A stretch of 64,000 bases of DNA from Staphylococcus phage vB_SauM-UFV_DC4 (MZ779063.1); one strand, 5' to 3'. Shown: positions 10,345-55,762, counted from the first letter of the stretch. Notes: generated by a model not told the origin, from the sequence alone. Program-made: numbers and translations.

Positions 10345-10370
10345 TATATTATATAAGTGTAGTACAGAAT
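10345..10370 (+). promoter_or_regulatory. Promoter-like motif TATATTATATAAGTGTAGTAC upstream of the RNAP beta-prime fragment
   Basis: One of at least 8 copies of TATATTATA(N2-5)TG(A/T)(A/G) found 30-60 nt upstream of plus-strand starts. Confidence 0.45.
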
Positions 10371-10398
10371 ATTTATTTATAAGGAGAATGAATTAGAT

Positions 10399-12312
10399 AT
10401 GACAAATGAAGAAATTGTTTTAGATTTAAAATTAGGTAAGTATAATGATTATTTACACTCAGATAATTATTTTGAAATTTTAGAAGATTTAAAGAAAGAT
10501 ATTATTAGTAATCCTCAAAAAAGAATGGAAGACTATTTTGAAGACAATATATCTAAAAGTAATTATTTCACTTTATTAGTATTAGGTAAACCTTTTAGAG
10601 ATATGAATAAAGAGTTTACGGAAGAATACTTAGTTAATCCAACTGATATTGAAGATTATTATGATTATTTTGACAAAGTTGTTGTTAATTTTATTCATGA
10701 AGGACATGACCCAATAAAAGTTAGTCAATCTATTGCATTTATTATTGATGAATTAACTATATTTTCAAATGAATATATTTTACCTTTAGATGGACCATCT
10801 ATTTCATTATACGATATTATGAGATTGGCTAATGAAGATAAAGAAGTAGAAAAATTAATTAACTTTGATAAAGAAGATATTGACCCTAGCTTAAACTATC
10901 AGCAAATTATCAATGAAGTTCAAAAACCTAATATGCATAAATTAATTGATCGTATTAAATCTGATAAAGAAAATGATTATAAAACTTTCTTACATTCAGG
11001 AACAGGTATTAATAAGATACAATTGAATGAGGTTTTAAGTTTCGTAGGATACAAACCAGATATTCGTGGCGATGTTGTAACTGATATTATTGATACCTCA
11101 TTCATGCGTGGTTTAAAAGATACAACACAATTTGCTATTGATGCAGAATCTTCATTAAACGCATTAATGAACTCTAAGAATAAAGTACGTGAATCAGGAT
11201 ACTTAAACCGTAAAATTACTTTATTAACTTCAGATTTAAAATTATCAGAAAATGAAGATTGTGAAAGTAAACATTTTGTTTACGTTAATATGAATAGTCA
11301 AGATAAATTAGATAGATTTAATGATAGATTCTATTATGATGATACAGATCAAGAATTAAAATTAATTAATTCTAAAGAAGATAGTCATTTAATAGGACAG
11401 ATTGTTCCATTACGTTCTCCTATCACATGTGCTGAATCTAAAGGAAAAATATGCCAAACTTGTTACGGTAAACGTTTATATAACATTAATAGAAACTTAT
11501 CTGTAGGTATATTGGCTACATTAAGATTAACAGAACCTATGACTCAAAAATTATTATCAACAAAACACTTACAAGCAGTACAATTATCTGAATTCTCTTG
11601 GCCAGATATCTTTAAAGAACACTTTGAATTCTCTGGAGATAATATTGTTCCACGTAATGAAAAGACTAAAGTTATTATTGATGAAATGATTATTAATGAA
11701 GATTATGAATATGGAAGATATAAAGCTAACAGTTTTAAATTTAAAGTAGGTACTAAAACTCATACTGTTAAATCACCTGTAACTCTTAAAATACCAGATC
11801 AAAATATTGAGACTATGGATAAGTTTTATGATGAAGAAGAAAATGCATTTATATTCAGTATGAAAGACTTAAAAGAGAATTTCTTATTTAATATTAAAAT
11901 TAAAAATGAAGGTGTTGCTGACCCACTTCTTAAAATACGTTCTATATTAGAAAGTACTAAATACATTAGAAATGATTATGAAGAAAATAACTATCAAGCA
12001 ATGTTTAATGATGTAACAGATTTATTACTTAAATCAGGTACAGACGTTATGAGTGTTCATTTAGAAACTATTATTAGAAACATGGTATTCTTAAATGAAG
12101 ATTATAAAGAAAGAACTAAATATAGAGATCCTGAATTTGAACCTGATATTGAATTGAAAAATGTAGGTAGTGCTATTTTAAGTTCACCTTCGCCAGTACA
12201 ATCATTAATCTTTGAGAAGATTAAAGCACAATTAAGTACTGATGAAACTAATAACTTCTTCAGTAAAGATGGAGACTCAATGTTCGATCCGTTATTTGAT
12301 TTTGATATTTAA
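10399..12312 (+). CDS. Multisubunit RNA polymerase beta-prime subunit, C-terminal module (bridge helix to trigger loop and beyond), fragment 1
   Basis: Bridge-helix-like FMRGLKDTT...SGYLNRKITLLTSDL (compare bacterial [23 protein letters not shown]). Trigger-loop region RSPITCAESKGKICQTCYGKRL...NLSVGILATLRLTEPMTQKLLSTKHLQAV (compare RSPLTCE..GVCAKCYGRDLA.G...[25 protein letters not shown]). Confidence 0.75.
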   Translation: MTNEEIVLDLKLGKYNDYLHSDNYFEILEDLKKDIISNPQKRMEDYFEDNISKSNYFTLLVLGKPFRDMNKEFTEEYLVNPTDIEDYYDYFDKVVVNFIHEGHDPIKVSQSIAFIIDELTIFSNEYILPLDGPSISLYDIMRLANEDKEVEKLINFDKEDIDPSLNYQQIINEVQKPNMHKLIDRIKSDKENDYKTFLHSGTGINKIQLNEVLSFVGYKPDIRGDVVTDIIDTSFMRGLKDTTQFAIDAESSLNALMNSKNKVRESGYLNRKITLLTSDLKLSENEDCESKHFVYVNMNSQDKLDRFNDRFYYDDTDQELKLINSKEDSHLIGQIVPLRSPITCAESKGKICQTCYGKRLYNINRNLSVGILATLRLTEPMTQKLLSTKHLQAVQLSEFSWPDIFKEHFEFSGDNIVPRNEKTKVIIDEMIINEDYEYGRYKANSFKFKVGTKTHTVKSPVTLKIPDQNIETMDKFYDEEENAFIFSMKDLKENFLFNIKIKNEGVADPLLKIRSILESTKYIRNDYEENNYQAMFNDVTDLLLKSGTDVMSVHLETIIRNMVFLNEDYKERTKYRDPEFEPDIELKNVGSAILSSPSPVQSLIFEKIKAQLSTDETNNFFSKDGDSMFDPLFDFDI

Positions 12313-12386
12313 AACAATATAATTCAACCAAACTTCTATTAACTTAGGAGTTTGGTTATATATAATAACTCTAGGAGGAATTTAAT

Positions 12387-12677
12387 ATGGAAAATGTACC
12401 AGAATATAGTTTATTAGGGATATATAATTTTAATTATGATAAAGAGAAATTAATAATGTCTATAATAAAAAATTGTCATATTGTCTTTAACACTATTAAT
12501 GAGGATGGAGAAAGAGATATTTATTTATTATCTGATTTAGAAATTAGTGAGGATGGTATATTTTCTTTTGTATTAACTAAAGATGATTTACCGGTATCAG
12601 TTCATAATTTTTCAATTAAAGAGGTATATGATTTTGATGAACTTAATAAATTGATAATGAAAGAAATTAATTCTTAA
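12387..12677 (+). CDS. Small acidic protein; candidate uracil-DNA glycosylase inhibitor (Ugi)-like DNA mimic (speculative)
   Basis: 96 aa, AGGAGG RBS, acidic; segment ERDIYLLSDLEISEDGIFSFVLTKDD loosely resembles PBS2 Ugi ESDILVHTAYDESTDENVMLLTSD. Confidence 0.5.
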   Translation: MENVPEYSLLGIYNFNYDKEKLIMSIIKNCHIVFNTINEDGERDIYLLSDLEISEDGIFSFVLTKDDLPVSVHNFSIKEVYDFDELNKLIMKEINS

Positions 12678-12744
12678 AAAATTAATTTTTTATAATAACT
12701 GATAGATATAAAATTTTAAAGCAAAAAGGAGAATTTAATTTAAC

Positions 12745-13191
12745 ATGGAAATTTTCAAATTAAAAGAATTAGAAGGTAAACAAGAACAAACAATCGAATT
12801 AACTGGTGATGATAAAAACCTTAAAGAAATTAGAGAAGCATTCTTTAATAGTCAATCAGGTACTTATATGGTAAATAAAACTATCAATGATAATATTGAA
12901 GAATTCTTCAAACATGCTGAAGATGATGTAACTGTAGATGATGTTTATAAACTTAATGTAATTGTTGAAGATGATAAACAAATTACTTTAGTTAAAGCTG
13001 AAAAAGATGATCAATTTAAGAAAGGTTGTTTCTACATGGTATTTGACTTAATGGGTTCTGTACCTGTTTATACTGATTTAGAAAATCCTGAAGCTACATT
13101 TGATTTATCCGGTATGTTTAAAGAAAATGGTTTTGATTTCTTTAAAACTATTGCAGAAGTATTCCCTACTACTATTGAGCTTAAACAATAA
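12745..13191 (+). CDS. Hypothetical acidic protein
   Basis: ORF with AAGGAG RBS. Confidence 0.5.
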   Translation: MEIFKLKELEGKQEQTIELTGDDKNLKEIREAFFNSQSGTYMVNKTINDNIEEFFKHAEDDVTVDDVYKLNVIVEDDKQITLVKAEKDDQFKKGCFYMVFDLMGSVPVYTDLENPEATFDLSGMFKENGFDFFKTIAEVFPTTIELKQ

Positions 13192-13208
13192 AGAAAGAAG
13201 CTGATACT

Positions 13209-14756: not shown

Positions 14757-14776
14757 TGAAAGGTTGTTGAGGTATT

Positions 14777-15487: not shown

Positions 15488-15498
15488 GGAGTAAATAT

Positions 15499-16731: not shown

Positions 16732-16740
16732 ATTTTTAAA

Positions 16741-16765
16741 TATATATTATAAAGATGTATTAGTA
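16741..16765 (+). promoter_or_regulatory. Promoter-like motif TATATATTATAAAGATGTATTAGTA
   Basis: Copy of the TATATTATA family upstream of ORF 16802. Confidence 0.4.
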
Positions 16766-16801
16766 ATGGAATATTATTAATATAAATAATTTAAATGGAG
16801 A

Positions 16802-18052
16802 GTGTCAGATATTATGTTAACAAATTTTAAAGATCATTTACACAGAGGCGGAAACCTTTCAGTTTCAATTTATACTTTATTTACTAGAAAGAATAAAAAT
16901 ACTGGTAATGCTATTAATGGTGAGTATATTAACACGTATCAATCAAGTCAATATAACGGTGTTCCTTTCTTAAGTGAAATTGAAAATAATGGTAATCATT
17001 ATATTTCTTTCTCTTATAACAAATTTCAACAAGGTCAAGCACCTATTCGTGAAGATGTATTAATTAGTTATCCACATTTACAAGAATTTAATAATTTCTT
17101 AAAAGCAACTTATACAAGTATTAGTGAGAATTTTAATAATATTTTCTCTAATAATCAAGTTAATCCAGATTATCAACAACATATTTGGCAATCACCAAAA
17201 TTAGTATCTGGTAAAGAAATTGCTATTGCTCCTGCAGTAATTCAAAATAATAGAACTAATAATTTTGAAATTGGTTTTAATATTATGGTAAATGATACTA
17301 ATAAATATGATTTTGTATCAGCTAATACATTTATCAGTTTAGTTAATTTATTAGTTAGAATTACTAATGATCCATTAACATTCAGAAATCAATGTGTGCA
17401 AGCAGAAATGCAAGCTAAAGAAATTGAAAATAATCAACTATTAAAAGGATTATTAAGAGCTCAAGGTTTACCTACAGACATGAGTAATCATCATATGGAT
17501 GAAAAATCAGCTCAAGGCAATGCTCCACGTAATAATAACTTTAATAACAACAATGGTGGAGGTTTCAATAATAATAATAATCAATTCGGTAATTTCGGTG
17601 GTAATAAAGGAAATTTTAACCAAGCTCCACAACAACAAAATAACTTTAATCAACAGCAACAGAGTCAACCTCAAGGAAATCCTTTTGGAAATTTTAATCA
17701 ACCTCAACCACAACAGAATCAACAACCAGCACAACAAAATGATAACCCTTTTAATGTAAGTCAACAACCAGTACAACAAAGTAGTAGTAATCCATTTGAT
17801 GCTGGTCAAACGGATCAAATTAGTGATGATGATTTACCATTTGAAACTAAAGAAACACCACAACAAGATGATAGACAAATTGATAAATCTAACATGTTTA
17901 AAGATGCTGAAGTTAACAAAGAATCAGGTTCTTTAGAAGACTTATCAAATACAGTAAATAATGAAAGTGAAGGTAAAGCTAGTTCTTTACTAGATGATTT
18001 CATTAAAAAAGGTAAAGAATCAGAACAAGAAGATGATGATTTAGGAATTTAA
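16802..18052 (+). CDS. Protein with a globular N-terminal domain, a long Q/N/G/P-rich low-complexity linker and acidic DDDLPF-containing tail; single-strand DNA-binding-protein-like architecture (speculative)
   Basis: About 110 aa of NNFNNNNGGGFNNNNNQFGNFGGNKGNFNQAPQQQNNFNQQQQSQPQGNPFGNFNQPQPQQNQQP, then DQISDDDLPFE and terminal EQEDDDLGI. Confidence 0.55.
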   Translation: MSDIMLTNFKDHLHRGGNLSVSIYTLFTRKNKNTGNAINGEYINTYQSSQYNGVPFLSEIENNGNHYISFSYNKFQQGQAPIREDVLISYPHLQEFNNFLKATYTSISENFNNIFSNNQVNPDYQQHIWQSPKLVSGKEIAIAPAVIQNNRTNNFEIGFNIMVNDTNKYDFVSANTFISLVNLLVRITNDPLTFRNQCVQAEMQAKEIENNQLLKGLLRAQGLPTDMSNHHMDEKSAQGNAPRNNNFNNNNGGGFNNNNNQFGNFGGNKGNFNQAPQQQNNFNQQQQSQPQGNPFGNFNQPQPQQNQQPAQQNDNPFNVSQQPVQQSSSNPFDAGQTDQISDDDLPFETKETPQQDDRQIDKSNMFKDAEVNKESGSLEDLSNTVNNESEGKASSLLDDFIKKGKESEQEDDDLGI

Positions 18053-18995: not shown

Positions 18996-19035
18996 CCCCT
19001 AACCTTATTAATTTAAGGTTAGGGGAATTTATATC
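18996..19035. terminator. Bidirectional terminator hairpin CCCCTAACCTT-ATTAATTT-AAGGTTAGGGG flanked by A-run and T-run; member of the CCCTAACC hairpin family
   Basis: Perfect 11-bp stem between convergent genes 18137..18988(+) and 19043..20713(-). Confidence 0.65.
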
Positions 19036-19042: not shown

Positions 19043-20713
19043 TTATTCTGTAGCTTCTTCTTCTGGAGATTCTTCTACTTGTGAAGTAGAAATATTAATA
19101 TTAATATCTTTACTTATACTGTCAGAAATAACATTAACTTTAGCAGTTCCTGCAGCTTTAGCAGTCACGAGTCCATCGTTATTAACTGAAGCAAATTCAG
19201 AACCTTCAGTAATAGAATAACTTACAGGGTTTCCTTTAGGATCTGTAGTTACATTTAATTGTTGAGTTTCATTGTCTTTCATATCAATACTATCAGGAGT
19301 AACTGTTAGACTTTTAGTCTTTACTCTAGTTACATTAACATTAACTGTCTTACTAATAGAATCAGAACTTACTTTAACTTTAGCAGTTCCTACAGTTTTA
19401 GCAGTTACAAGACCACTATCATTAACTGAAGCAAATTCAGATCCTTCAGTAATAGAATAACTTACATTGTTTGTAGATGGTTGAATTTTAACGTCTAACT
19501 GTTGAGTTGATTCTGCATCTATGTTAACTTCTTCTGGAGTAACAGTTAGACTTTTAGTCTTTAAACGACTTACATTAACTTCTACATTTTTAGAAACATT
19601 GTCTGATTTAACTGTCACATTTGCAGTTCCTTCAGAAATACCAGTAATATTTCCTTTATTATCTAATGAAGCAAATTCAGAACCGTCTTTTAATTCAAAG
19701 CTTACTTTTCTTCCTTCAGGTTCAGTAGTAACTTCTAATTTTTGAGTTTCTTCTGCTTCAATATTAACTGTCTCTGGAGTAACAGTTAAGCTTTTAGTTT
19801 GATTGATACTTTCAAATTTTCCGTTTTTAGGATTATAAACGGAATATTCAATTTTTTTATCAATTTCGTTTTGTACTGTTTCTTCACTTAATATGCGAAT
19901 ATTGAAATTAACAATATTATCTTGAATACTTCTCTCATGTACTTTAACTAAGACTTCACCAGTTTTACTAAAGAATAATAAACGATTTTTATCTGATTGG
20001 TATCTAGCATAACTTTCATCACTAATATTTACAGATAATAATTGTAAAAGGTTTTCTTTAGCTACAGGAGTAACTTCTTTAGTATCGAAATCTTTATAAC
20101 CTAAGATTTTATCTAAAGGTAAAACAGATTCTTTAAGAACGTTAATATCTTGTTGTAATTGAACAAGACGTCCTGTAAATTTACCGTATTCTTTAACTTT
20201 AATAAAGATTGAATCTTTAACACGTTCAAAGATATTTTTATGTCCTTCAGAAATAGCAATATCATACTTTTCTGAAGCATCTTTAGGGAAGTATAATTTA
20301 AGTTCATATTCTTCATTAACTTCTAAATCAGAAGTAGGTAAACTTAAAATTTCAGATTTAACATCTTTAGCAGTATAAGTTTTAACTACAGACTTATCTG
20401 AAAGTTTGATTAAGTCAAATTTTAATAATCCCAATACATCACGAGCATCTACAGGATTAATATAGAAAGGTACATTAATAAACTTACCAGTTTCTCCTTC
20501 AGATTTGAAGTAAACTGTTCTTCTATCATATTTAATTTTACCAGTTTCAGGAAGAGGTTGAACATCAGTAACAGTCCAACCAGCTTGTTTTAAGCTAGCT
20601 AGATCATTACTAGAAAGAATAACGTTTTCACGAGGTCCACGTTCACCTAAACCTAAAAATGGAATTAATTTTTCATCTAATAATTTTACTTTAAAGTAGT
20701 TAGTAGTAGCCAT
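19043..20713 (-). CDS. Virion-associated protein with three tandem C-terminal bacterial Ig-like (Big_2-type) domains
   Basis: Three repeats of about 90 aa: KTKSLTVTPExVNIxAExTQQLxV...SYSITEGSEFASVNxxGLVTAKxxGTAKVxVxSDSISKxVNVNV. The N-terminal ~370 aa is unassigned. Confidence 0.6.
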   Translation of the reverse strand: MATTNYFKVKLLDEKLIPFLGLGERGPRENVILSSNDLASLKQAGWTVTDVQPLPETGKIKYDRRTVYFKSEGETGKFINVPFYINPVDARDVLGLLKFDLIKLSDKSVVKTYTAKDVKSEILSLPTSDLEVNEEYELKLYFPKDASEKYDIAISEGHKNIFERVKDSIFIKVKEYGKFTGRLVQLQQDINVLKESVLPLDKILGYKDFDTKEVTPVAKENLLQLLSVNISDESYARYQSDKNRLLFFSKTGEVLVKVHERSIQDNIVNFNIRILSEETVQNEIDKKIEYSVYNPKNGKFESINQTKSLTVTPETVNIEAEETQKLEVTTEPEGRKVSFELKDGSEFASLDNKGNITGISEGTANVTVKSDNVSKNVEVNVSRLKTKSLTVTPEEVNIDAESTQQLDVKIQPSTNNVSYSITEGSEFASVNDSGLVTAKTVGTAKVKVSSDSISKTVNVNVTRVKTKSLTVTPDSIDMKDNETQQLNVTTDPKGNPVSYSITEGSEFASVNNDGLVTAKAAGTAKVNVISDSISKDININISTSQVEESPEEEATE

Positions 20714-22323: not shown

Positions 22324-23274
22324 TTAGCTAAATGTTCCCCATGCTGGACCAATACGTTTACCGTTACCATTTGATTTACCCACTGGTACGTATACATATT
22401 GTCCCTTAAATTTACCTGAAACCCAAATATATCCGTTAAAATCTTGGATTTCATCATATTTAATAGTGTCACCTTTAGACATACGAGGACCTTGAGGCCA
22501 TCCAGTCCATGGACCATTTTTACGAGTAATAATTCCTACAGATACACCACATTTGAAAGTAGCTTTTTCAGTTTTCCATAGAATACCTGCTGAATTACGT
22601 TTCCAAGTAGTTGAAGTTTCAGTACTTGTTTTCTTAGGTTTAGCAGGTGCTTTAGTTGTAGTAGTAGATTTAGTCGCTGTTGAAGTTTTAGCTGTAGAAG
22701 TAGCACCATTTTTCATATAAGCTAGAACCTTTTTATCTACATTAGAAACACTACGAGACATACCGCATGCAGCTAATAAGTTACCTGGATCTTGTTTGTC
22801 TGCTTGAATATCTTGATGACCTGGCATATTTGTACTTGCATTAACTTTATATTCTTTACATAAGAAAGCAAGAATACGACAATAGTTATCAAATGATTTT
22901 AATGAACGACTTCTATTAGAGAAGTAACATCCTTCAACACCAATAGCACCGTCATTAGCATCAATACCATACCAAGCATTATCAGTTGGTGTATTATACA
23001 TAACATGCCATGCTTTTTCATCTAAAGGAACACAAATAATACATTCTTTATCATCAACAAAAATATGAGCTGATGCTGTATAGTTCCAATCGATATTATA
23101 TGAATTACGATAGTAATCAACATTATTTTGAGCTGTTGTGTTAGGGTTTCCTGTGTCATGAGCAACAATAAATTTAGGTCCGTTAAGCTTATCTCCAGCT
23201 CTACGAGTACCTATTGGTAAAAAATCAGTATAAACAGGAACACCGTTCCATGTACCGATATGTTTTTTAGCCAT
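22324..23274 (-). CDS. Peptidoglycan hydrolase: N-acetylmuramoyl-L-alanine amidase (amidase_2/PGRP fold) with a C-terminal SH3b domain
   Basis: FIVAHDTGNP...AHIFVDDKECIICVP...W matches the amidase_2 zinc-site layout; C-terminal SH3b shared with the CHAP lysin; AGGAGG RBS. Confidence 0.8.
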   Translation of the reverse strand: MAKKHIGTWNGVPVYTDFLPIGTRRAGDKLNGPKFIVAHDTGNPNTTAQNNVDYYRNSYNIDWNYTASAHIFVDDKECIICVPLDEKAWHVMYNTPTDNAWYGIDANDGAIGVEGCYFSNRSRSLKSFDNYCRILAFLCKEYKVNASTNMPGHQDIQADKQDPGNLLAACGMSRSVSNVDKKVLAYMKNGATSTAKTSTATKSTTTTKAPAKPKKTSTETSTTWKRNSAGILWKTEKATFKCGVSVGIITRKNGPWTGWPQGPRMSKGDTIKYDEIQDFNGYIWVSGKFKGQYVYVPVGKSNGNGKRIGPAWGTFS

Positions 23275-30428: not shown

Positions 30429-33400
30429 TTATAGCATATCTTTTACTTTACGTTTTAATTCTATTAAAGCTTTATTAGTTGCCAACATTAAATAAATATC
30501 AGTAGTCATACGAGATACGATACTTAATGGAGAGAATATAGCTTCGATTTCTTCGTCAGGTCTATATTCTGCATAAGGAGATTCATTAGGAGGAGTAACA
30601 TCAGCAATAACTGTTTTACATGCTCCATAGAAACTAATCTTATCACCGATACTCATATCATCTTCATATTCTGTGAAAATTTCAATAAGTACTCCATCCA
30701 CTTTTTCACCTTTAATTTTCTCACTATTAATTTTCTCTACAGCTGGAATATCTACATCTAAACCAGGTAATGTAGATTTATTATCTTTAACTGCATTTTT
30801 GTATTCTCTATATTTACTCTTAGATTTATTAATATAACCATTAACTAATTTAGCTAATGTAGGAGACATATTTTCAATATCATCATTATAATAGATATTT
30901 ACTTTTTTAATTTCTCCAGTATATTTAGATCTAACAGCTCTATTAGAAATATCTTGTATTTCTTGTTCAAATTCAGAACCGATTTTATCTAATAAAGAAC
31001 CAATACCTTCATCATCAAATGAATTCTCAAATATCATTAATGGATCTCCTGTACGTACATTTTGACCTTCCTTAACAATATATTGAATATTTGTATTAGA
31101 AGCTAAATTAACTGTTTTCTTCATAGTAACTTTAGTTGACATTGCTTCAGACATACTGTTAGAAATAATAGAACTATCTTCGTACGTGCCATAGCTTGAA
31201 GCAACTGCAACTTTAGATAATTTACCAGCAGCAAATTGAATATCATTATTACTGCCAGATCCTGCAAAGTAACTATCATTTTTAGCCAATACTTGTCCTT
31301 TATTAAATTTCTTACCTACTTCAAATTGTGGGGTAAGTTTATTATTTTGATAGAAACCGCCATTAGAGTTTTTAGCAAGTTTTTCAGATATATCAATTAC
31401 ATCTTTATCCCCATTAATGTATTCAACAAGCATTAATCCTGTTTTCTCATTGATAGAAGTTACTTTCCCATCTTCTTTAGCTTTAAATGCAAAAGTATCT
31501 GAAATTTGATACGCTAAAGATTTATCTACACCAGATCCAACTAATGGACGATCATTTGTTTTAGTAGCGATTAAATGCTTAGCCTGAGTTCCTGTCATTC
31601 CTATACGAGGTGAATCTGCATGTCTACTAGTATATGGGTTTAATAATTCTAATGGAGTGTATAAAGCTGTATCACTTACATCTTTCTTACTACCATCAGT
31701 ATATCCACGAGTAGATTTAATCTGTGTATCATATGAAAGTTGTCTAACTATACCTACCTTATTACTGTCAGGTGTGCTTATTCCTAATATACCTTGCATA
31801 CTTTCGTCATAAGAACGAATATCAGGTTCATATGATTGTTCAGAGTTACGTCCAGCAGGACCTTTAAACGTAACAGAAGTCATCTTATCTATTTCTAAGT
31901 TAGGGTTTAAATCAGATACTTCATCTACTGTAGGTTGTTCCATAATAGTTTTAATTAATTGATCTTGTTTAACTGAAATATTCTTAGGATTTTTATTATT
32001 ATAAGAATCTGAATACTCTTTATAAGCATTTGCCATCATTTTATACAATAATGCGTTAATTTGCTCTGGTCCACGTACACGATAAATTCCCATATCATTA
32101 TGATCTCTAGCTGAAACGTCTTCTAACATTGTATTAGCTAATAGTAATAATTCAACCATATTATCAGGAAGTTTTAAATCTCTTAATACTTCTTTAGTAA
32201 TAGGATCCATTGCTAAATCCATAGTATTTTTAATACCTTTACCAACATTACGACTGTAGAATTTATCATTGAAATATTCTAAGTAAGGTGTTTCAGTTTC
32301 AAAATCACTGAAATTGTATTGTGAAGTAGGTAATACAGTTAATCCAGACATTAATAAATCAAATCTTAATTTATCAGTAGAGTATATTAAATAACCGTCT
32401 TGGAATTTAATCTTATTCTTTTTATCATGAATGCTAATTCTTTCATTCTCAGTAGTAAATTTATAATCAACTTCATAAAGATCAAGAATATTAGTTAAAC
32501 CTTTATAGAAACCTAATAATAGAATTGTAGGTACTAATTTATTAGTAATTTTAACACGTGAAAATGCCATCGTCTTATTAGATTGAATATTCTTACTGAA
32601 TTTCTTATCAACGACTCCAAAGTCAACTTCATTGTCTAGTTTATCAATAATGTAATCAAATATATTTACTTCCATAGATTTAATATTAGATTTACTACAT
32701 TCATACATAACAGATTCTGTTTTGTCTGCTAATATTAATTTAGATTTATTAATATTATAACCAATAGGGAAATATTTATCTTGATCATAATCAATCTTAG
32801 ATAAACTAGCGCTATCGGAAATCATTCCTAATAAACTTCTTTGGTTGAATTCAAGTACATTAGTACCATCTTGGAAATTTAATATATTTCTAGATAAACT
32901 ATTATAAATAACTGAAGTTACGTATTTATTATTAATTAAAGAAGCATTACCTTTTTTAACAGATAGGTTAGATTTATTTTCAATATAATCTATAACTTGG
33001 TCATCTTCAATAACTTTCTTAATCCATTCAGTTTCAGCATTTTCTTTATAACCGAATTTTTCTATAATGAATTTATTATAGTTAGTTGTAATCCAAACAG
33101 TATCAGGTTTATATTTAACGATTGGCCACATCATTAACTGTTTAGTTAATACTTTTTTACCGCCATTAAGTTTCATATATTTACCGTCAATAACTTTAGG
33201 AACATCAAATTTAACATTATGAGTTAAACCATCTGGACTTCTAAATTGGACTTTAACTGTATTTTTTAATGACTGACTATCTGAATTATCTTCAATATTC
33301 ATTTTATTAATAAATACTGGAATATCTTCATTGTCATTAAAGCTTTTCATTATATCAATAAAGTCTTTATTAAATGTTTTTTGCATATAAGAAATATCAA

Positions 33401-34682
33401 AATCATTAGAAGCAATATTGTTAATAGTCTCTTCATTGATATTATTAATATTTTCATTAATTTCTCTATCGATTAATTTATCTTCAGAAAAACTAAAATC
33501 TTCTAAATCATTAAGGTATTCATCTTGTTTCTTAGATAAAGCTAATATCTTTTTAGTATTTTTAAGAGCTTCATCACCAATGCTAGATTTATTTTTAATA
33601 TTTCTTTTAATTGATTTAAATGAATCATTCTTGTCTAATACATCTGAATATAAAGTTTCTGTATCAATGTCAATTAAATCTTTATTATCATTTAATTCTT
33701 TTTCAATTATCATAGCTATATTATATTCATCATCAACATCCATTTCAGTATTGTCTAATGATCTAATATAACTTATTGTAGAATCTATTTTATTAGATAT
33801 TTTTTCTAACTGTTCATCATTTTCATATTCAACTTCATCATTCTGAGCTTCGATAGGATCAATTGTTCCTACATTATCAAATGCTTTCTTTTTAATTACT
33901 CCATCTACAGCTTCAGTATTATCATCATCTTCAACTTTACTAATTTCATCAGTATCCAATGCTTGTGTATTAGTGTCAATGATTCTTCTTAATCTTTGTC
34001 TAAGTCTCATATTAAGTTTATTATAATCTTTGTAATCAAATTTAAACATTATTCCATTATCTAGAGAGACAAATAATAAATTAACATTTTGATTTTCACC
34101 ATGAGGTAATTCCTCTTGATTCTTAATCATCATGAATAAGCTTGACATGAAATCTTTTGTATTAGGTCTAATAGCTTGTTGAGAAGGTTTATTATACCCA
34201 TCAACATTAATCACATAAAGTAAATTATTGTAATCTTCTGTATTATTTAAAGAGTTAAAAGTTGATTTAATTGAATTTAATACTGTATTAAAGTTTTTAG
34301 TCATTAATGATTTATCTTCTAAATCAATAAATTTAGTTGAATCAACAATATAGTTTCTACCTTTAAATAATTTCTCATTTCTTTCAACTCTATACTGTTT
34401 ATAAGATTTAGATTTAATTTCTTTTTGATAATCTGTTATATTCGTTAATAATCTAGTTCTTCTATTTTGAGTTCTATACAATCTTGGTGTATAGATATTC
34501 TTGAAATTCTGATGATATAATAATCCACTATTTAAGAAATCAGTAAATGAATTTTCTTTAAAACCTTTATAAATAACTAACTGGTCTTTTTTCTTATCTT
34601 TGATTTCTTCATCAATAGCTTTAATTTTATATCCAGATATTGAATAGAATTTAAGATTTTTTAATCTATTAAGATATTTCAA
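30429..34682 (-). CDS. Multisubunit RNA polymerase beta subunit, large N-terminal/central fragment. It ends about 20 aa after the PSRM-region equivalent and lacks the C-terminal GGQRFGEME block
   Basis: Alignable blocks: [55 protein letters not shown] vs bacterial [90 protein letters not shown] vs [50 protein letters not shown] vs [71 protein letters not shown] vs [45 protein letters not shown]. Confidence 0.75.
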   Translation of the reverse strand: [1417 protein letters not shown]

Positions 34683-35142: not shown

Positions 35143-36369
35143 TTGGCTAATATGAATTATGAAAATAAAACACTTAATGAAAAAGAAGTATCGACATTAT
35201 TAAGTGTTGGTAAAGATGACATTACATTAGACAAGTTAAAAGAATTATTTGCTTTTAGACAAAATACAGAACCAATGTATAATCCAACGGATAAATTTAC
35301 ATTAAAGAAAGATTTAGTCTATAATAAAAAAGATGAAAAAACTACTGTAGGTAGATATATATTTAATAAATTTATTTTAGATAATAAAATTGGACCGATT
35401 ATAGGCTATATGAATCGTGATATGGGCGGTTCTGGAGTAGGTAAACTTCAATCTGATTTATCAAATTTATTACTTAATGATATTATTACTACACAAGAAA
35501 TGTCAAATTATATCGATAAATTACAATGGTTAGGTTTCTCTATAGCCAGTTTTATTAATTCTAGTCTAACTACTACAATGATGACTGCTACTGAAAAAGT
35601 TAAACAGAAAAAAGAAGAGTTATTAGTTAAATATGAAAAAGCATTGAATACTCCTGGAGAGGAATTAAATGCAATATCAGTTATTGAAAAAGAATTAATT
35701 AATTTAAGTAAAGAAGAATTAAAAGGATTGGCTGATTTAGATATTTATGATAGTGGCTCACGTGGTTCATTCGGTAATAACTATAAATTAACTGCATTAA
35801 TTCGTGGAGCAAATAAAAACTTTGCTGATCCAAGTAAAATTAGAATTGCTAAAAGCTCACTAGCTGAAGGAATTGATCCTAATGAACTTTATATGTTTGG
35901 AGATATTATGACTGCAGGTTCAGCTGGACGTGCACTAGGTACTCAAGAAGGAGGGTATCAGGCTAAGCAGCTGATGTCGGCTTTCCAAACGACTGTTTTA
36001 GATAAAAAAGGTTCTGACTGTAGAACAAATCATTTCCTTAAATTAATATTAGATAAATCAAACGCATCATTAATGATGTATAGATATTTTAAAGATAATA
36101 ACGCAAGATCAGGTCAATTAGTTTTATTAACTCCTGAAAATGTAGATGATTACATGGGTAGAGTTTTAGAATTTAGAAGTCCTATGTATTGTGCAAGTGA
36201 AGATATTTGTAGTAAATGTGCAGGAGAATTACCATATAAATTAGGAATTGAAAATATTGGTCTATTAGTTAACCAAGTTGCTCAAGCAATCGTAACAAGT
36301 TCAATGAAATCTTTCCATGATATGACGATTAAACAAAATGAAATAGATATAGAAAGTTATATAGAATAA
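35143..36369 (+). CDS. Multisubunit RNA polymerase beta-prime C-terminal module, fragment 2 (paralog of 10399..12312); the ORF ends about 18 aa after the trigger-loop first helix
   Basis: Bridge-helix-like GDIMTAGSAGRALGTQEGGYQAKQLMSAFQ; trigger-loop region FRSPMYCASEDICSKCAGELPYKLGIENIGLLVNQVAQAIVTSSMKSFHD. Confidence 0.7.
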   Translation: MANMNYENKTLNEKEVSTLLSVGKDDITLDKLKELFAFRQNTEPMYNPTDKFTLKKDLVYNKKDEKTTVGRYIFNKFILDNKIGPIIGYMNRDMGGSGVGKLQSDLSNLLLNDIITTQEMSNYIDKLQWLGFSIASFINSSLTTTMMTATEKVKQKKEELLVKYEKALNTPGEELNAISVIEKELINLSKEELKGLADLDIYDSGSRGSFGNNYKLTALIRGANKNFADPSKIRIAKSSLAEGIDPNELYMFGDIMTAGSAGRALGTQEGGYQAKQLMSAFQTTVLDKKGSDCRTNHFLKLILDKSNASLMMYRYFKDNNARSGQLVLLTPENVDDYMGRVLEFRSPMYCASEDICSKCAGELPYKLGIENIGLLVNQVAQAIVTSSMKSFHDMTIKQNEIDIESYIE

Positions 36370-36437
36370 CATAGATAGGATAACAATCATTAAATTGATT
36401 GTTATCCTTATTTTATTGGATTAAATCATTCTTTAAA

Positions 36438-36470
36438 TTTATATTATAATTATGAGGTGAATGATGTGTA
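36438..36470 (+). promoter_or_regulatory. Promoter-like motif TTTATATTATAATTATGAGGTGAATG
   Basis: TATATTATA family copy upstream of the endonuclease gene 36508. Confidence 0.4.
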
Positions 36471-36507
36471 TTAATGTGATATACTTATAATTATAAAAAT
36501 AAATTTA

Positions 36508-38601: not shown

Positions 38602-38608
38602 TATAATA

Positions 38609-38650: not shown

Positions 38651-38858
38651 ATTTAGGATTTATAAATAACTATTTTAATATAGTAATAGATATATTTCTA
38701 TTTACTATATTCGTAAATTCTTTTTCTTACTCAATCTCGTAATTTGTTTTGCGTCAAGCAGGTTACATGGGCCTCCTACCCGTATAATATTGTACTACAC
38801 CTAAGTGGATCATAGAAAATGGTCCACTTTATTTATCGTTTTCAATTAATTTTTAAAA

Positions 38859-38885
38859 TTATATTATAAATATGAATATTTAAGT
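38859..38885 (+). promoter_or_regulatory. Promoter-like motif TTATATTATAAATATGAATATT
   Basis: TATATTATA family copy upstream of ORF 38912. Confidence 0.4.
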
Positions 38886-38911
38886 TATTATAAATTAATT
38901 GAGGTGATAAA

Positions 38912-40363: not shown

Positions 40364-40364
40364 A

Positions 40365-40395
40365 TAGAAGGATAGTATCCTTCTATTTTTTTTTT
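40365..40395 (+). terminator. Hairpin AGAAGGATA-gt-ATCCTTCT followed by a T10 run
   Basis: Directly after the 38912..40363 stop. Confidence 0.6.
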
Positions 40396-40403
40396 ATTTA
40401 TTA

Positions 40404-40846: not shown

Positions 40847-40880
40847 CCCTAACCTCATTAATTTGAAGGTTAGGGTTATT
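40847..40880 (+). terminator. Hairpin CCCTAACCTC-ATTAATTTG-AAGGTTAGGG followed by a T-rich run; member of the CCCTAACC family
   Basis: Ends the structured noncoding region 40380..40880, just before the promoter motif at 40897. Confidence 0.5.
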
Positions 40881-40896
40881 TTATACATAGTTTTAA

Positions 40897-40925
40897 ATAT
40901 ATATTATAAAAATGAGATATAATTG
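40897..40925 (+). promoter_or_regulatory. Promoter-like motif ATATATATTATAAAAATGAGATAT
   Basis: TATATTATA family copy upstream of ORF 40962. Confidence 0.4.
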
Positions 40926-40961
40926 TCTCAAATACTTTTATAATATGGAGATGAAAAAGAT

Positions 40962-42920: not shown

Positions 42921-42960
42921 ACCCTAACCTTAAATTAATAAGGTTAGGGTATTTTATATT
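42921..42960. terminator. Bidirectional hairpin ACCCTAACCTT-AAATTAATA-AGGTTAGGGT with flanking T-run; CCCTAACC family
   Basis: Between convergent genes 40962..42914(+) and 42968..43651(-). Confidence 0.6.
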
Positions 42961-43651: not shown

Positions 43652-43750
43652 AGATTTAATACCTTCTTTCTAATTTTCTTTTATCTATATTAGTATAATT
43701 AAATGTTATGAATATTTTTTAGTCTTTATGCGTTTCATGTAAATTTTTAA

Positions 43751-43775
43751 ATATATATTATAAAAGTGAAGTACT
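43751..43775 (+). promoter_or_regulatory. Promoter-like motif ATATATATTATAAAAGTGAAGTAC
   Basis: TATATTATA family copy upstream of ORF 43826. Confidence 0.4.
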
Positions 43776-43825
43776 AATTAGCTAATAGTATTTCATAAAA
43801 ATTACACTAGGAGAGTGAATCGGAT

Positions 43826-45910
43826 ATGAGTAGAATAATACTAAAGAAAAACAACTTGTCAGAAGAAAATATCAGTTTAAAGGAGGTTAAACGTTGGTTT
43901 AAGAAAGAAATAGATTTTAATCAACCATCTAAAATGATAAATGATAAAAATTATGTAAATAATGTAAATAATCTTTTTGATGGTGTTATTAATATTATGA
44001 AAGAAAATAAAATAACAGATACAATGTTTAGATTTATTTCCAATGATAATAATGAAGATATTAGAAATATTTTTATTATTTATTCAATTGATAGTATTCC
44101 TTTTGTTACTAGAGTATATGGACCAAAAATGAATCTTAAAGATAAAAATAGTGATGTAAATGTAGATGCATTACTAAAATTTATTAAATCAAGTATCATT
44201 GACAATTTAATGATTTACAAATTTTATAAAACTACAGATTTTAGTTTCCATAAAAAACTAAGCAGTTTCGGTAATTATGAAAGAAATACATTATACGATT
44301 TAATTGCTGAAATTAATAAAGATGCTATTATTGCAGCATATAAAGAATTAAGTGTGGATAACTTAGGTAGTTACTTAATTTCATTAGACAATGAGGAGCT
44401 ACTAAATAAATCTTATGACGCAATTAATTATTTTGATTTACTAATGGATGCTAATATAAATGTTAGAAGTAAAGAAGGTAAATTGATTCAAAAGATTGAC
44501 AGAAATGATATATTTTCAAATAGAACATATTCTGAAGTGTTCACATTTAGTCAACGTTCAGATTATTATTTCGCTAGTAATCCATTATTCAATATTCCAA
44601 AAGTAAGTGATGTAAGGGATGATACTAGAGTAGATTTATTTATATGTACAAATGGAAAAGAACAAAAAATAAGAGATACAAGTGTCTTAACTAGAGAAAA
44701 TTTATATTTCAATCCATTTAGACAACGATTCTTGTCAGTTAGCTATGAACATCCTATTAGAGAGACATTGATATATGATTTATTCTTAAGTTTCTTTGGT
44801 ATAGAAAATATTGAAAATACTTTAAAGAGATTTACATTTGAACTTCTTCAAGGTGTTTATTCAGGAATATATTCTAAAGGGAATGTTAATGAAGTTACTT
44901 CAAAATCATATTTATTAAATTCAGAAAATAAACGTGGATATACTAAGAAGAAGAAAAATGAGTATCCATTAAAAATGAACATATCAGAAACGTTAAGCAC
45001 TAGTACTCATATAGTAGGATATACTTTATTCAATAACTTCTTATTTGAATATATACAGTCAAGTAATAAAACTATAAAACTTGATGATTTTAATGTTATA
45101 AAATTAATGAAATTCATTACTTTTGAAAATAATAACACTGATTTTAATGAAGATATTAAAAATGTCTTTACGTCAAGAAAAGATATATTTAATGGTAATA
45201 AACGTATTAATACATCTTCGCATAGATATACAAATCTAAAACTAGGTTTAGAATCTTCATTAAATACAATATTTAATGAGGATAAAAATTATATTGATGC
45301 ATTTACTAATCAATATCAAAATATAATTGAAGGAAAATATGCATTTTCTAAACCTGAAAAAGAAAGTATTATTGAAATCAATAATGAAGATGAATTAAAA
45401 GAAATGCAGGAAGAAATTAAATCAAAAGATTCTAATATAGAATATGTAGAAGAAACTAAAGAAGAAACTAAAAATGATAAAAAAGAGGAGAAATTAAATA
45501 TGTCATATCAAATTATTAAAGAAAATAAATTTACTAAAGATGTATCATTTAAATATGCAGGTTCTACACATAGAATTGATAAAATTCGCAAAGGTGATAT
45601 TGAATTAGAAATTGCTAAACGTAAATTATTCATTAATAAATTAATTAATGATAATACTAAATTTGCTTTCGTAGATAGCGTAGAGTTCTCGGATAGTCAT
45701 ACTATTAAAGTTACTAATATTGATGGTGAAGTTCAATTTGTTAGTGATTATGTTGATGTTCTTGAAGGAACAGATACTTTAGAAGACATTAGAATTAAAG
45801 TTACTAATAAAGATTTAGATAGTGATGAAAATTTAGTTAAATTAATTACTGGTGAAGAAACTGATATTAATTCTTTAGATGAAGAAATCTTAGATTCATT
45901 TATGGTTTAA
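43826..45910 (+). CDS. Large hypothetical protein
   Basis: 694-aa ORF, GGAGAG RBS; no recognisable motifs. Confidence 0.5.
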   Translation: MSRIILKKNNLSEENISLKEVKRWFKKEIDFNQPSKMINDKNYVNNVNNLFDGVINIMKENKITDTMFRFISNDNNEDIRNIFIIYSIDSIPFVTRVYGPKMNLKDKNSDVNVDALLKFIKSSIIDNLMIYKFYKTTDFSFHKKLSSFGNYERNTLYDLIAEINKDAIIAAYKELSVDNLGSYLISLDNEELLNKSYDAINYFDLLMDANINVRSKEGKLIQKIDRNDIFSNRTYSEVFTFSQRSDYYFASNPLFNIPKVSDVRDDTRVDLFICTNGKEQKIRDTSVLTRENLYFNPFRQRFLSVSYEHPIRETLIYDLFLSFFGIENIENTLKRFTFELLQGVYSGIYSKGNVNEVTSKSYLLNSENKRGYTKKKKNEYPLKMNISETLSTSTHIVGYTLFNNFLFEYIQSSNKTIKLDDFNVIKLMKFITFENNNTDFNEDIKNVFTSRKDIFNGNKRINTSSHRYTNLKLGLESSLNTIFNEDKNYIDAFTNQYQNIIEGKYAFSKPEKESIIEINNEDELKEMQEEIKSKDSNIEYVEETKEETKNDKKEEKLNMSYQIIKENKFTKDVSFKYAGSTHRIDKIRKGDIELEIAKRKLFINKLINDNTKFAFVDSVEFSDSHTIKVTNIDGEVQFVSDYVDVLEGTDTLEDIRIKVTNKDLDSDENLVKLITGEETDINSLDEEILDSFMV

Positions 45911-46631: not shown

Positions 46632-47186
46632 ATGGCAACTAAAATAGATTTTAATAATGAAGACGATTATAATGATGTATTAAATATAAACGATTGGAAT
46701 AGACTATGTATGGACTTCTGTATTAGATCTGCTAGTATTAGTAAATGTGCTGCTAAACAAGTCAGCTCAATTGTAGCTGATAAAGATTCTATATTTTCTC
46801 TTGGAGTAAATGGTTCTTTTCCGGGTAAACTAAATTGTAATGAAATATTTAAAAAAGAAGATGGAATTTGGTATGTAAAAGATCTTAATGAAGAAACTAA
46901 TTTAATTGAATGGGTTAAATGCGAAGATCAAGAACAGCATCATAAATGGTCTTTATTAAATGAAGTTCATGCTGAAATAAATGCTTTATCTAAAATGAAT
47001 AAAAAAGGTATTTCTACTGAAGGACTAGACTTATATTGTACTCACTCACCATGTTATAATTGTGCTAAAAGTATAATTGCTGCTGGAATTAAAAATGTCT
47101 ATTTTAATGAATTATATGATGGTTATGAAGATGTTATGGAATTATTAGTTTCAAATAATGTTAACTTCATTAAAGTGGAGGTCTAG
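46632..47186 (+). CDS. dCMP (deoxycytidylate) deaminase / cytidine-deaminase-fold zinc enzyme
   Basis: Zinc-binding signature HAEINAL...(28 aa)...SPCYNCAKSIIAAGIKNVYF (H-A-E ... P-C-x-x-C). Confidence 0.7.
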   Translation: MATKIDFNNEDDYNDVLNINDWNRLCMDFCIRSASISKCAAKQVSSIVADKDSIFSLGVNGSFPGKLNCNEIFKKEDGIWYVKDLNEETNLIEWVKCEDQEQHHKWSLLNEVHAEINALSKMNKKGISTEGLDLYCTHSPCYNCAKSIIAAGIKNVYFNELYDGYEDVMELLVSNNVNFIKVEV

Positions 47187-47860: not shown

Positions 47861-47900
47861 CCCCTAACCTTATTAATTTAAGGTTAGGGGGTTTATATTA
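47861..47900. terminator. Bidirectional hairpin CCCCTAACCTT-ATTAATTT-AAGGTTAGGGG (identical to the copy at 18996) followed by a T-run
   Basis: Between convergent genes 47363..47854(+) and 47907..48674(-). Confidence 0.65.
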
Positions 47901-50293: not shown

Positions 50294-50387
50294 TATTAAT
50301 TTTCACCGTTCTTTCATTATCATTATTTAAGTATAAATGCTTGTTTCTATTGTTTTGTTATAAAAAATTAAGAACGCATTTATTTAT

Positions 50388-50412
50388 AAATATAATATTA
50401 TATAGTACATTA
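50388..50412 (+). promoter_or_regulatory. Promoter-like motif TAATATTATATAGTACATTAATTG
   Basis: Variant of the TATATTATA family, close to the 10345 copy (TATATTATATAAGTGTAGTAC). Confidence 0.35.
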
Positions 50413-50472: not shown

Positions 50473-50874
50473 ATGGCTCAAAATATCTATAATCGTCAAC
50501 ATATGTTAGAAGATATGGAAGCTATGGGTCAAACAATCCAGAATTTAATTATAATGAAAAAAGGAACTTATCCTAACACTCCAAATTTAGGAGTAGGAAT
50601 AGAAGATTATTTATTTGAAATACTAGATAACGAAACTATATCTGATATTACTAGTAATATTAATAATCAGATAAGTCAATATATAGTATCTTCTTCTGTT
50701 AATATAGATGTTAAAGTAATACAATTAAAAAATAGTAATGCAAATTTAAATAGTTTAAAAATTGACGTTACATTATCAGATACAATTGATATTTCTAACG
50801 TACAAAGTTTTTCTTATGTGTTTGCGGCTAATATGTTAACTAGGAAAATGGTAACTAAACTTGTCTTAAGCTAA
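50473..50874 (+). CDS. Hypothetical protein
   Basis: ORF. Confidence 0.45.
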   Translation: MAQNIYNRQHMLEDMEAMGQTIQNLIIMKKGTYPNTPNLGVGIEDYLFEILDNETISDITSNINNQISQYIVSSSVNIDVKVIQLKNSNANLNSLKIDVTLSDTIDISNVQSFSYVFAANMLTRKMVTKLVLS

Positions 50875-50916
50875 GACTTTAAAAATAATAAAAGAAAAGA
50901 ATGGAGAAATAGATAA

Positions 50917-52431: not shown

Positions 52432-52496
52432 TAACAACGACCAACTCCAAGCAGTATAGAAAAAAGGTCTTTGATGATGCAGCGTATATAGCATAT

Positions 52497-52697: not shown

Positions 52698-52725
52698 AAA
52701 AGAAATGAAAGGAGCTGACTATTGA

Positions 52726-53019
52726 TTGGTTACTAATACTAAAGATAGTCAGAAAATCCTTCATATTTATGATTCTCTTGTTGAAGATGATGATAATATT
52801 TTATCATCTCTATGTCATTCTAATAAAGGTTTAGTATTTGTAAATCTTTTATATGACCTAGATTATAAAATTAAAGAAGGATTTTCTAAGAACTATAATG
52901 AATTTGATTACATTATTTTGGAAACAGAAGATAAAGAAAAATTAAAAGAAAAAGTTTCATATATAAAAAATTTAAAATTTGAAGACAACAAGAATAGTAT
53001 AAGAATTTCAATTGTATAA
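52726..53019 (+). CDS. Small hypothetical protein (TTG start)
   Basis: ORF with GAAAGGAG RBS. Confidence 0.4.
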   Translation: MVTNTKDSQKILHIYDSLVEDDDNILSSLCHSNKGLVFVNLLYDLDYKIKEGFSKNYNEFDYIILETEDKEKLKEKVSYIKNLKFEDNKNSIRISIV

Positions 53020-53036
53020 AGTGAGGTCTAAAAAGA

Positions 53037-54779: not shown

Positions 54780-54787
54780 AACTTATT

Positions 54788-54830
54788 GCCGAAACCATTT
54801 GAACATTAATGGTTTCGGCTTATTTTTGTG
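54788..54830 (+). terminator. Hairpin GCCGAAACCATT-tgaacatt-AATGGTTTCGGC followed by a T-run
   Basis: 12-bp perfect stem after the 53037..54779 stop. Confidence 0.65.
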
Positions 54831-54948
54831 AATATAATTATCTTAATAATCTTTTTTACAAAATTAGATTTTTATGATTTTTTATTTGCTTTTTTGCTAA
54901 TTTTTTGTTATAATTAAAAATATATTAAGTAGGAGGAATTATATAAAA

Positions 54949-55722
54949 TTGACTAATTTTACAGCTTCTCAATTTCTCAAAAACCCTACAGGAAAAGGTT
55001 CAGCTACAGTAGCTAGACGTGATAGAATCATATTAGATATGAGAACTAGATTCTCTTATCTTTATAAAAAGAATAGAAAGAGCTTTAAATTAAAGATATT
55101 CTTATATCAAGATAAGTACTATTTCTATTTCCAAATACCTTCAGAAGACTATTTTAAAGAGAATTTATCTTATGATGTTATTATTGAATTTAGACCACCT
55201 AATGAAAGAGCAGCTAAAGCAAAAGATCTTAATAATTACTTAATAAGATTTATTAGTAATTCACCTAACTTTATGTTTACATATGGTTATCTATATAATA
55301 AAGATGATTTACTAATAAGTTGGTTAAGTTATAAATTAGGACCTAAAGCTTTAAATCAACCTCCAGAAGTTAGAAACCCTAGACTTGAATACGGTTTTGA
55401 GAAATCAGTTTATTTTGCACTTTTGTATTTAGAGACTAACCCTAAAGCATTAAAAAATCCGCTTCATTTGACATTACCTAACAGACAAAGAATTAAAAGT
55501 TCTTTCAAATCTTCAGAATTAAAATTACGTGAATACAATAAGATTAAAAAACAGAAAAATGCTTCTAAGAAAAACTCATCAGGTATTAAAAGACAAATAA
55601 GTAATCGTGTCGATAAAAGAAATGAAGAAAAGAAAAGAGTAACTAAACCTATTAATAGAAAAGTTAAATCTATAGGTAAAGTTAAAAAAGTTAAGAAGAC
55701 TAACTCTACAAAACGAAAATGA
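54949..55722 (+). CDS. Hypothetical protein with a very basic Lys/Arg-rich C-terminal tail (nucleic-acid-binding-like)
   Basis: C-terminal 70 aa KKQKNASKKNSSGIKRQISNRVDKRNEEKKRVTKPINRKVKSIGKVKKVKKTNSTKRK. Confidence 0.5.
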   Translation: MTNFTASQFLKNPTGKGSATVARRDRIILDMRTRFSYLYKKNRKSFKLKIFLYQDKYYFYFQIPSEDYFKENLSYDVIIEFRPPNERAAKAKDLNNYLIRFISNSPNFMFTYGYLYNKDDLLISWLSYKLGPKALNQPPEVRNPRLEYGFEKSVYFALLYLETNPKALKNPLHLTLPNRQRIKSSFKSSELKLREYNKIKKQKNASKKNSSGIKRQISNRVDKRNEEKKRVTKPINRKVKSIGKVKKVKKTNSTKRK

Positions 55723-55730
55723 TTTATTAA

Positions 55731-55762
55731 ATATATATTATATAAATGATAAATAATACTTA
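55731..55762 (+). promoter_or_regulatory. Promoter-like motif AAATATATATTATATAAATGATAAATAATAC
   Basis: TATATTATA family copy upstream of ORF 55799. Confidence 0.4.

Follow-up and report, generated by a model that had tools for sequence, protein, structure and literature searches.

The DNA considered here, referred to throughout as the window, is a stretch of 64,000 nucleotides (nt) from Staphylococcus phage vB_SauM-UFV_DC4 (MZ779063.1), with a G+C content of about 25% and an intergenic share of 8.3%. Within it a recurrent motif precedes eight genes, seven on the plus strand and one on the minus strand, and comparison with mapped promoters of a related phage indicates that these eight sites very probably serve as early promoters in a jumbo phage with uracil DNA, belonging to an AR9/PBS1-like lineage. 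The genes in question encode two subunits of a non-virion RNA polymerase (RNAP), three proteins resembling HNH or homing endonucleases, two products with no assigned function and a homologue of an AR9 gene product (Table 1); the window also holds two genes for subunits of a virion RNAP and, at 46632-47186, an orthologue of the dCMP deaminase gene. Staphylococcus jumbo phages are relatives of Bacillus phage AR9 and possess two multisubunit RNAPs (Korn et al., bioRxiv 10.1101/2020.12.14.422802), and the replacement of thymine by uracil in the DNA has been reported for phage S6 and is presumed for the MarsHill group. More specifically, a 10-kb stretch of the window has 98.2% nucleotide identity to S6, 98.1% to PALS_2 and about 96% to both Madawaska and MarsHill; for LY01, AH12, Machias, PB50 and SA1 the figure is 84-91%.

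In the window the motif takes the form TTTAAAT(A/T)TATATTAT-N6-G (equivalently TATATTATA-N4-TG) with a fixed spacing, and the T of TATATTAT lies at 10345, 16743, 36440, 38860, 40900, 43754 and 55734 on the plus strand and at 58793 on the minus strand. An earlier note on this DNA had described a recurrent promoter-like motif upstream of eight plus-strand gene starts, with a spacer of two to five nucleotides. Seven of those eight instances are real, and the spacing proves to be constant rather than variable. The remaining candidate, placed before the gene at 50473 (50386..50405, plus strand, ATAAATATAATATTATATAG), was rejected, as it scores 7.9 bits, which is within the noise; the gene itself encodes a gp25-like baseplate wedge protein and is expected to be late. 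Conversely, the true site on the minus strand had been overlooked. The distance to the genes, previously given as 30-60 nt, has to be corrected to 52-72 nt from the start of the motif to the start codon, with predicted 5' untranslated regions (UTRs) of 19-58 nt. Conservation does extend past the core, as had been noted, and runs to about +4 (T(-1) G(+1) A R R), where part of it represents one arm (5') of an inverted repeat, but it also reaches upstream into a conserved TTTAAAT at -22 to -15. The logo of the S6 sites reads T(-22)TTAAAT(A/T)TATATTAT-A-A-N-A-A-T-G(+1)-A-R-R.

Independent evidence comes from a weight matrix built solely from 38 full-length, experimentally mapped early promoters of AR9 (Table S2 of Lavysh et al., PMC5312081). 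With this matrix, the top eight ranks in the window are exactly the eight sites, at 17.9-24.7 bits (the AR9 promoters score themselves at a median of 20.9 bits), followed by a single intragenic near-match at 15.7 bits and then by noise of at most 10.9 bits, and a second-order Markov model of the window predicts 0.07 matches at 17.5 bits or more. The bare 9-mer TATATTATA is not enriched over composition in the window (16 matches for 11.9 expected), whereas the extended pattern with its fixed spacing, TATATTAT-N5-TG, clearly is (8 for 1.48 expected), a count of 8 being reached in none of 100 shuffles. All eight sites are intergenic and oriented toward the next gene on the same strand, and their flanks show no mutual relatedness. 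The same matrix finds 36 sites of at least 17.9 bits in the complete S6 genome, separated by a gap from the next score of 15.7; 35 of them lie outside open reading frames (ORFs) of 120 or more amino acids (aa), and the other touches nothing more than its own gene's mechanical upstream ATG. This number falls between the 29 sites of MarsHill (Korn et al.) and the 41 of AR9 (Lavysh et al.).

The near-match in the window, a near-consensus AAATATCTATTAT-N6-G at 30881-30900 on the minus strand, lies within the coding sequence of the virion RNAP beta subunit and is kept in S6, SA1 and LY01. This match, TCTATTAT, was left uncounted, being intragenic and because in AR9 one mismatch can be enough to inactivate a site.

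Table 1. Predicted early promoters of the window with the genes behind them, stem-loops at the 5' ends of the predicted transcripts, and genes of the virion RNAP
Feature	Coordinates	Strand	Details
Early promoter (-20 to +1), core AAATTTATATTAT-N6-G	10339..10359	+	predicted; 22.0 bits; start G 10359
Non-virion RNAP beta' C-terminal subunit gene	10399-12312	+	behind promoter 10339..10359; 5' UTR 40 nt
Early promoter	16737..16757	+	predicted; 23.3 bits; start G 16757; motif kept in S6
Stem-loop, +1 to +27 of predicted transcript	16757..16783	+	-6.6 kcal/mol; z = -3.8 against shuffles
Gene with no assigned function	16802/16814-18052	+	behind promoter 16737..16757
Virion RNAP beta subunit gene	30429..34682	-	orthologues annotated as viral RNA polymerase beta subunit (MarsHill, Machias) and RNAP beta (SA1)
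Virion RNAP beta' (middle) subunit gene	35143..36369	+	annotation in MarsHill and Machias; PHROG 2962 match, 1.5e-75
Early promoter	36434..36454	+	predicted; 21.4 bits; start G 36454
HNH/homing-endonuclease-like gene, 697 aa	36508-38601	+	PHROG 559/3339 endonuclease matches; behind promoter 36434..36454
Early promoter	38854..38874	+	predicted; 18.0 bits; start G 38874
Second HNH/homing-endonuclease-like gene, 483 aa	38912-40363	+	behind promoter 38854..38874
Early promoter	40894..40914	+	predicted; 24.2 bits; start G 40914
Stem-loop, +1 to +16 of predicted transcript	40914..40929	+	-6.6 kcal/mol
Third endonuclease-like gene	40962-42914	+	behind promoter 40894..40914
Early promoter	43748..43768	+	predicted; 24.7 bits; start G 43768
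Stem-loop, +1 to +27 of predicted transcript	43768..43794	+	-7.8 kcal/mol; z = -4.0
Fast-evolving gene with no assigned function	43826-45910	+	behind promoter 43748..43768
Early promoter	55728..55748	+	predicted; 24.1 bits; start G 55748
Stem-loop, +1 to +21, GATAAATAA-TAC-TTATTTATC	55748..55768	+	from folding
Non-virion RNAP specificity-subunit gene	55799-57532	+	behind promoter 55728..55748
Homologue of AR9 g220	57621-58760	-	behind promoter 58779..58799
Early promoter	58779..58799	-	predicted; 17.9 bits; start G 58779; overlooked in the earlier note

The sites are also conserved beyond what their surroundings would suggest. Orthologous sites are unchanged in S6, MarsHill, LY01, Machias and SA1, where the surrounding intergenic DNA falls to 65-83% identity; the block of the promoter before 40962, for instance, is invariant in these five phages between diverged flanks, and the MarsHill orthologues of the sites at 40900, 43754, 55734 and 58793 are identical. 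The minus-strand site is likewise kept in five relatives, and in S6 the start codon of its gene is annotated at the equivalent of 58760. Before 43826, SA1 and LY01 retain the promoter, the 5' UTR and the ribosome-binding site, even though the protein has only 27-29% identity there, and in Machias, where the gene for the specificity subunit is inverted, the motif has moved along with the gene. The motif is common to phages of other genera with about 30% protein identity: in BpSp, a Bacillus phage, and LPJP1, a Listeria phage, the orthologue of the gene at 10399 has the same motif in the same placement.

The closest parallel is the early promoter of AR9/PBS1, AAATATATATTAT-(6N)-G+1 (PMC5312081), which has the same core, spacing and start G as the window sites, and whose tolerated variants AAATTTATATTAT and AATTATATATTAT are found in the window as well. 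Its placement before the non-virion RNAP genes g154 and g226 matches that in the window. Specifically, the gene at 10399-12312 is the orthologue of g154, whose early start is mapped at 127757 in AR9, and the gene at 55799-57532, whose orthologues in Madawaska, Machias and PB50 bear the annotation non-viral RNAP specificity subunit, is the orthologue of g226, which has two mapped early starts. An A-rich position near -30 and the late element AACA-N6-TA are further features that AR9 has in common with the window phage and S6. One difference is that the AR9 promoters have been mapped experimentally, whereas those of the window, including their exact start sites and early timing, are predicted from sequence.

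In addition to the core, a weaker second upstream element can be seen at -37 to -29 (e.g. 43731-43739 and 38837-38845). Across the 36 S6 promoters it consists of C(-32) in 16 (p ~2e-6), A(-30) in 31 and CG(-37/-36) in seven, three of these seven being paralogous repeats, and before 43826 all six phages keep CGTTT(C/T)AT despite an adjoining indel. AR9 has a counterpart, CCGTATTAAAA, with CG in 8 of the 38 mapped promoters, A(-31) in 30 and A(-30) in 32; the optional CG lies at -38/-37 in AR9 as against -37/-36 in the clade of S6 and the window phage. The main text of the AR9 paper (PMC5312081) makes no mention of this element.

MarsHill, which belongs to the same clade (96% nucleotide identity), provides a direct precedent, since MEME detected the TATATTAT motif there before 29 genes, and its recognition was ascribed to the virion RNAP (Korn et al., bioRxiv 10.1101/2020.12.14.422802). 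The motif is therefore already known, having been mapped in AR9 and predicted in MarsHill, and no new principle is added by its presence here: the earlier observation was correct, but had been anticipated. Its suggestion of an early promoter of the TATATTAT type known from AR9, read by a phage RNAP, is supported by the match to the AR9 consensus, by the RNAP genes and by the MarsHill precedent, and may be retained as a prediction. The sites combine the AR9 consensus and N6-G with an intergenic, co-oriented and overrepresented distribution, in a genome with split virion RNAP genes and with non-virion RNAP genes that carry the motif. The two virion RNAP genes themselves have no early motif upstream, and a late-type AACATCTAAATA element lies 43 nt upstream of the start codon at 35143.

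The enzyme that reads the motif is most likely the virion RNAP. Virion RNAP has been detected in virions of Staphylococcus jumbo phage DC4, and early transcription in AR9 proceeds without protein synthesis and has been ascribed to the virion RNAP (Lavysh et al., mBio 2017, PMC5312081). By analogy with AR9 and phiKZ, a multisubunit virion RNAP would be packaged in the capsid and injected together with the DNA, where it would bind the ~25-bp sequence TTTAAAT(A/T)TATATTAT-A-N4-T and start transcription at the G six bases past TATATTAT. Each unit would then be laid out as a terminator hairpin, the promoter, a 5' UTR of 19-58 nt, a Shine-Dalgarno sequence, the gene and a terminator. Among the products of these early units would be two subunits of the non-virion RNAP, and this second polymerase would subsequently read the late AACA-N6-TA promoters, as the non-virion RNAP of AR9 reads that phage's late promoters. 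The phiKZ group has the same architecture, with a conserved AT-rich element of ~10 nt near -10, a start ~6 nt downstream and an injected multisubunit virion RNAP, but differs in its phage-specific consensus, thymine DNA and nucleus-like compartment.

Several points count against this interpretation. A literature search found no transcript 5' ends, timing, or rifampicin or chloramphenicol data for any Staphylococcus jumbo phage; according to a 2020 review, none of the virion RNAPs of jumbo phages had by then been purified, and a search for a purified enzyme of this kind or its structure found only work on N4 and poxviruses. In AR9, a one-base deviation can inactivate a predicted site, as at g057 (Lavysh et al., PMC5312081), and therefore the lowest-scoring sites of the window, 38860 and 58793, could be weak or inactive; this doubt is offset at 58793, where the variant AATTATATATTAT is shared with the AR9 g001 promoter, which is mapped and active. 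Finally, TATTAT at -12 to -7 would also make a reasonable -10 hexamer for sigma-A.

This last point underlies the alternative that the sites are promoters of the host sigma-A polymerase, with TATTAT as the -10 element, the weak C(-32) together with A(-30) as the remnant of a -35 element and a spacer of 18 bp. The -10-like hexamer stands at a distance from the start G that suits promoters of the sigma-70 type, C(-32) and A(-30) recur in S6 at the frequencies given above, and in a sigma-70 scan two of the eight sites are weak matches at 9 of 12 positions (38839-38867 and 40880-40907). However, sigma-70-like matches as such are not enriched (101 for 119 expected), the TTGACA consensus is absent at the sites, and the AR9 upstream element, TATTAAAA, is not -35-like. 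The invariant block of ~25 bp does not fit a -35/-10 pair, and G(+1) and TAAAT(-20 to -16) go beyond what a -10 hexamer explains. As the motif is also the same as that of AR9 promoters which are active without protein synthesis and assigned to the injected virion RNAP, and uracil is reported in place of thymine in S6 DNA, recognition by the host enzyme is improbable.

It is more doubtful still that the motif is an end or target sequence of mobile homing-endonuclease cassettes instead of a general promoter. The sites at 36440, 38860 and 40900 do precede mutually paralogous HNH/homing-endonuclease-like genes, and two promoter-gene-terminator blocks vary in presence between genomes that are 96-98% identical (36370-38604 with respect to MarsHill, and ~38844-40400 with respect to S6). 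Nevertheless, the other five sites precede non-mobile genes, RNAP subunits among them, S6 has 36 intergenic sites, and the motif is internal to the cassettes and not terminal. The intron-borne endonuclease gene g190 of AR9 has its own mapped early promoter, and therefore such cassettes would carry a promoter rather than define it. That the motif lacks a function and reflects AT-rich composition or duplications of intergenic DNA can be practically discounted: the unenriched 9-mer and three S6 promoters (231518, 232552 and 233252) within clearly paralogous intergenic repeats might point that way, but the extended motif occurs eight times for 0.07-1.5 expected, at intergenic, co-oriented sites with unrelated flanks, and persists where its surroundings diverge and in other genera.

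If the eight sites are early promoters of the AR9 type, their predicted transcripts have one feature that AR9 does not share. At four of the eight sites the transcript would begin with a stem-loop (Table 1), and the structures are retained in relatives with altered stems. At 40914, the orthologues in Machias, SA1 and LY01 have a hairpin at or adjoining +1 whose stem sequences differ; at 43768, RNAalifold predicts nine pairs, two of them with compensatory changes in SA1; and at 55748 the stem becomes GATAAATG...CATTTATC in SA1 and GTATTTAA...TTAAATAC in Machias. In S6, the first 32 nt fold into a stem-loop in 31 of the 36 predicted early transcripts, a stable fold being defined as a minimum free energy below -3 kcal/mol, and the mean folding energy is -8.8 kcal/mol, with a mean z of -4.7. 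Of the 31 stable folds, 21 have their first paired base at +1 and six have it at +3, and a scan with 32-nt windows gives a sharp minimum at offset 0 against a mean of about -1 kcal/mol at other offsets. Since most of the stem-loops begin at +1 and the energy minimum falls at offset 0, the predicted start sites gain independent support. In 32 of the 36 cases folding is more favourable for the sense strand than for the antisense strand, with 27 G.U pairs, and this sense-strand advantage together with the G.U bias suggests that the structure acts at the level of RNA.

The stem-loop appears to be restricted to part of the group and to one class of promoters. The late-type sites of the window lack such a hairpin, and none is found at 25 mapped early starts of AR9 (mean z = 0.04) or at the early sites sampled in BpSp (six) and LPJP1 (four), where z is near 0, so that a general feature of AR9-like phages can be rejected. 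Intrinsic terminators or attenuators were likewise dismissed, there being no U-tract behind the stems when these were read by eye, with no formal count, and a common operator is contradicted by stem sequences that vary from promoter to promoter. The AR9 paper and Korn et al. are both silent on a hairpin at +1, and no description was found in the literature searched; the structure thus appears to be previously undescribed.

Coliphage N4 offers a partial parallel, as it too combines an injected virion RNAP with early promoters associated with inverted repeats. The N4 virion RNAP is a single-subunit enzyme, and the N4 hairpin lies upstream of the start and serves as the recognition element itself. 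Unlike in N4, the inverted repeat of the window clade is transcribed (+1 to about +29) and shows the sense-strand G.U bias, and no upstream DNA hairpin of the N4 type was found, folding upstream of +1 being at the background of about -1 kcal/mol. A second parallel is found in the stabilizing 5'-terminal stem-loops of bacterial mRNAs, which likewise leave no single-stranded 5' nucleotides (PMC3997798). For RppH to act, two or more 5' nucleotides have to be unpaired, and RNases of the 5' end-dependent kind need this terminus to be single-stranded (PMC3997798). An end that is paired from the first nucleotide would be a poor substrate for these enzymes, and therefore the most likely role of the stem-loop is to shield early mRNAs from 5' end-dependent decay (RppH, RNase J); alternatively, it may allow the phage to regulate its early mRNAs as a group. 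In contrast to the bacterial cases, the stem-loop here is a class-wide feature of phage early transcripts tied to one promoter type, and its effect on stability is a proposal. There is about an even chance that the Staphylococcus jumbo-phage clade possesses a composite early promoter, in which an AR9-type core is joined to a transcribed inverted repeat, giving mRNAs with a 5' stem-loop.

The predicted early units stand beside a second set of genes with late-type signals. AACA-N6-TA elements lie 43-66 nt upstream of the genes at 22158(-), 23274(-), 29085(-), 30332(-), 35143(+), 43651(-), 50293(-) and 58888(+), none of which carries the early motif, and reciprocally AACA-N6-T[AG] was found upstream of none of the eight early-motif genes. 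Such matches number nine in the window for ~1.8 expected (p ~1e-4), and both AACA and TA persist in Machias, SA1 and LY01, with an N6 that varies. MEME had failed to find a late signal in MarsHill (Korn et al., bioRxiv 10.1101/2020.12.14.422802). Terminator-like hairpins, 12 in the window for 0.9 expected, bracket the early units. Four of the terminators are built on one and the same stem, CCTAACCT-loop-AGGTTAGG, for none expected (18998-19023, 40848-40874, 42923-42948 and 47863-47888); three of the copies lie at convergent gene junctions and appear to act bidirectionally, and the fourth, at 40848-40874, closely precedes the early promoter at 40894. The Machias version of this last terminator has a different stem in which the pairing is retained.

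The endonuclease cassettes and tRNA loci deserve a separate remark. The window shares the block at 36370-38604 (terminator, early promoter and the 697-aa endonuclease-like gene) with S6 and LY01 but not with MarsHill, where the virion RNAP beta' gene is directly followed by the equivalent of window position 38605. The 1.56-kb block at ~38844-40400 (early promoter, the 483-aa endonuclease-like gene and terminator) replaces the tRNA-Asn gene of S6 (S6 record 22847-22915), and ARAGORN finds no tRNA-Asn in the window; MarsHill lacks both this cassette and the preceding one, and with them the counterparts of sites 36440 and 38860. The closest relatives of the 483-aa protein in the phage collection are paralogues at 32-36% identity. 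In Machias, an early-type promoter of 22.8 bits (record 20397-20411, plus strand) lies directly upstream of a tRNA-like sequence, at a locus annotated as tRNA-Asn pseudogenes, and from this placement some tRNAs may be transcribed early. The tRNA-Phe(aaa) that ARAGORN calls, as its sole tRNA in the window, at 20143-20236 on the minus strand, within the ORF 19043-20713, is probably a false positive, as Rfam has no tRNA there at the gathering threshold; indeed, an Rfam scan of the window gave zero family matches.

Taken together, the eight early and at least eight late-type units amount to a transcription map of the window, and two genes of undefined function, 43826-45910 and 16802-18052, can now be labelled as probably early. 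A lead worth pursuing is the stem-loop with which most of the predicted early transcripts begin, being specific to the Staphylococcus clade and offering a testable case in which a whole temporal class of mRNAs would have a structured 5' end.

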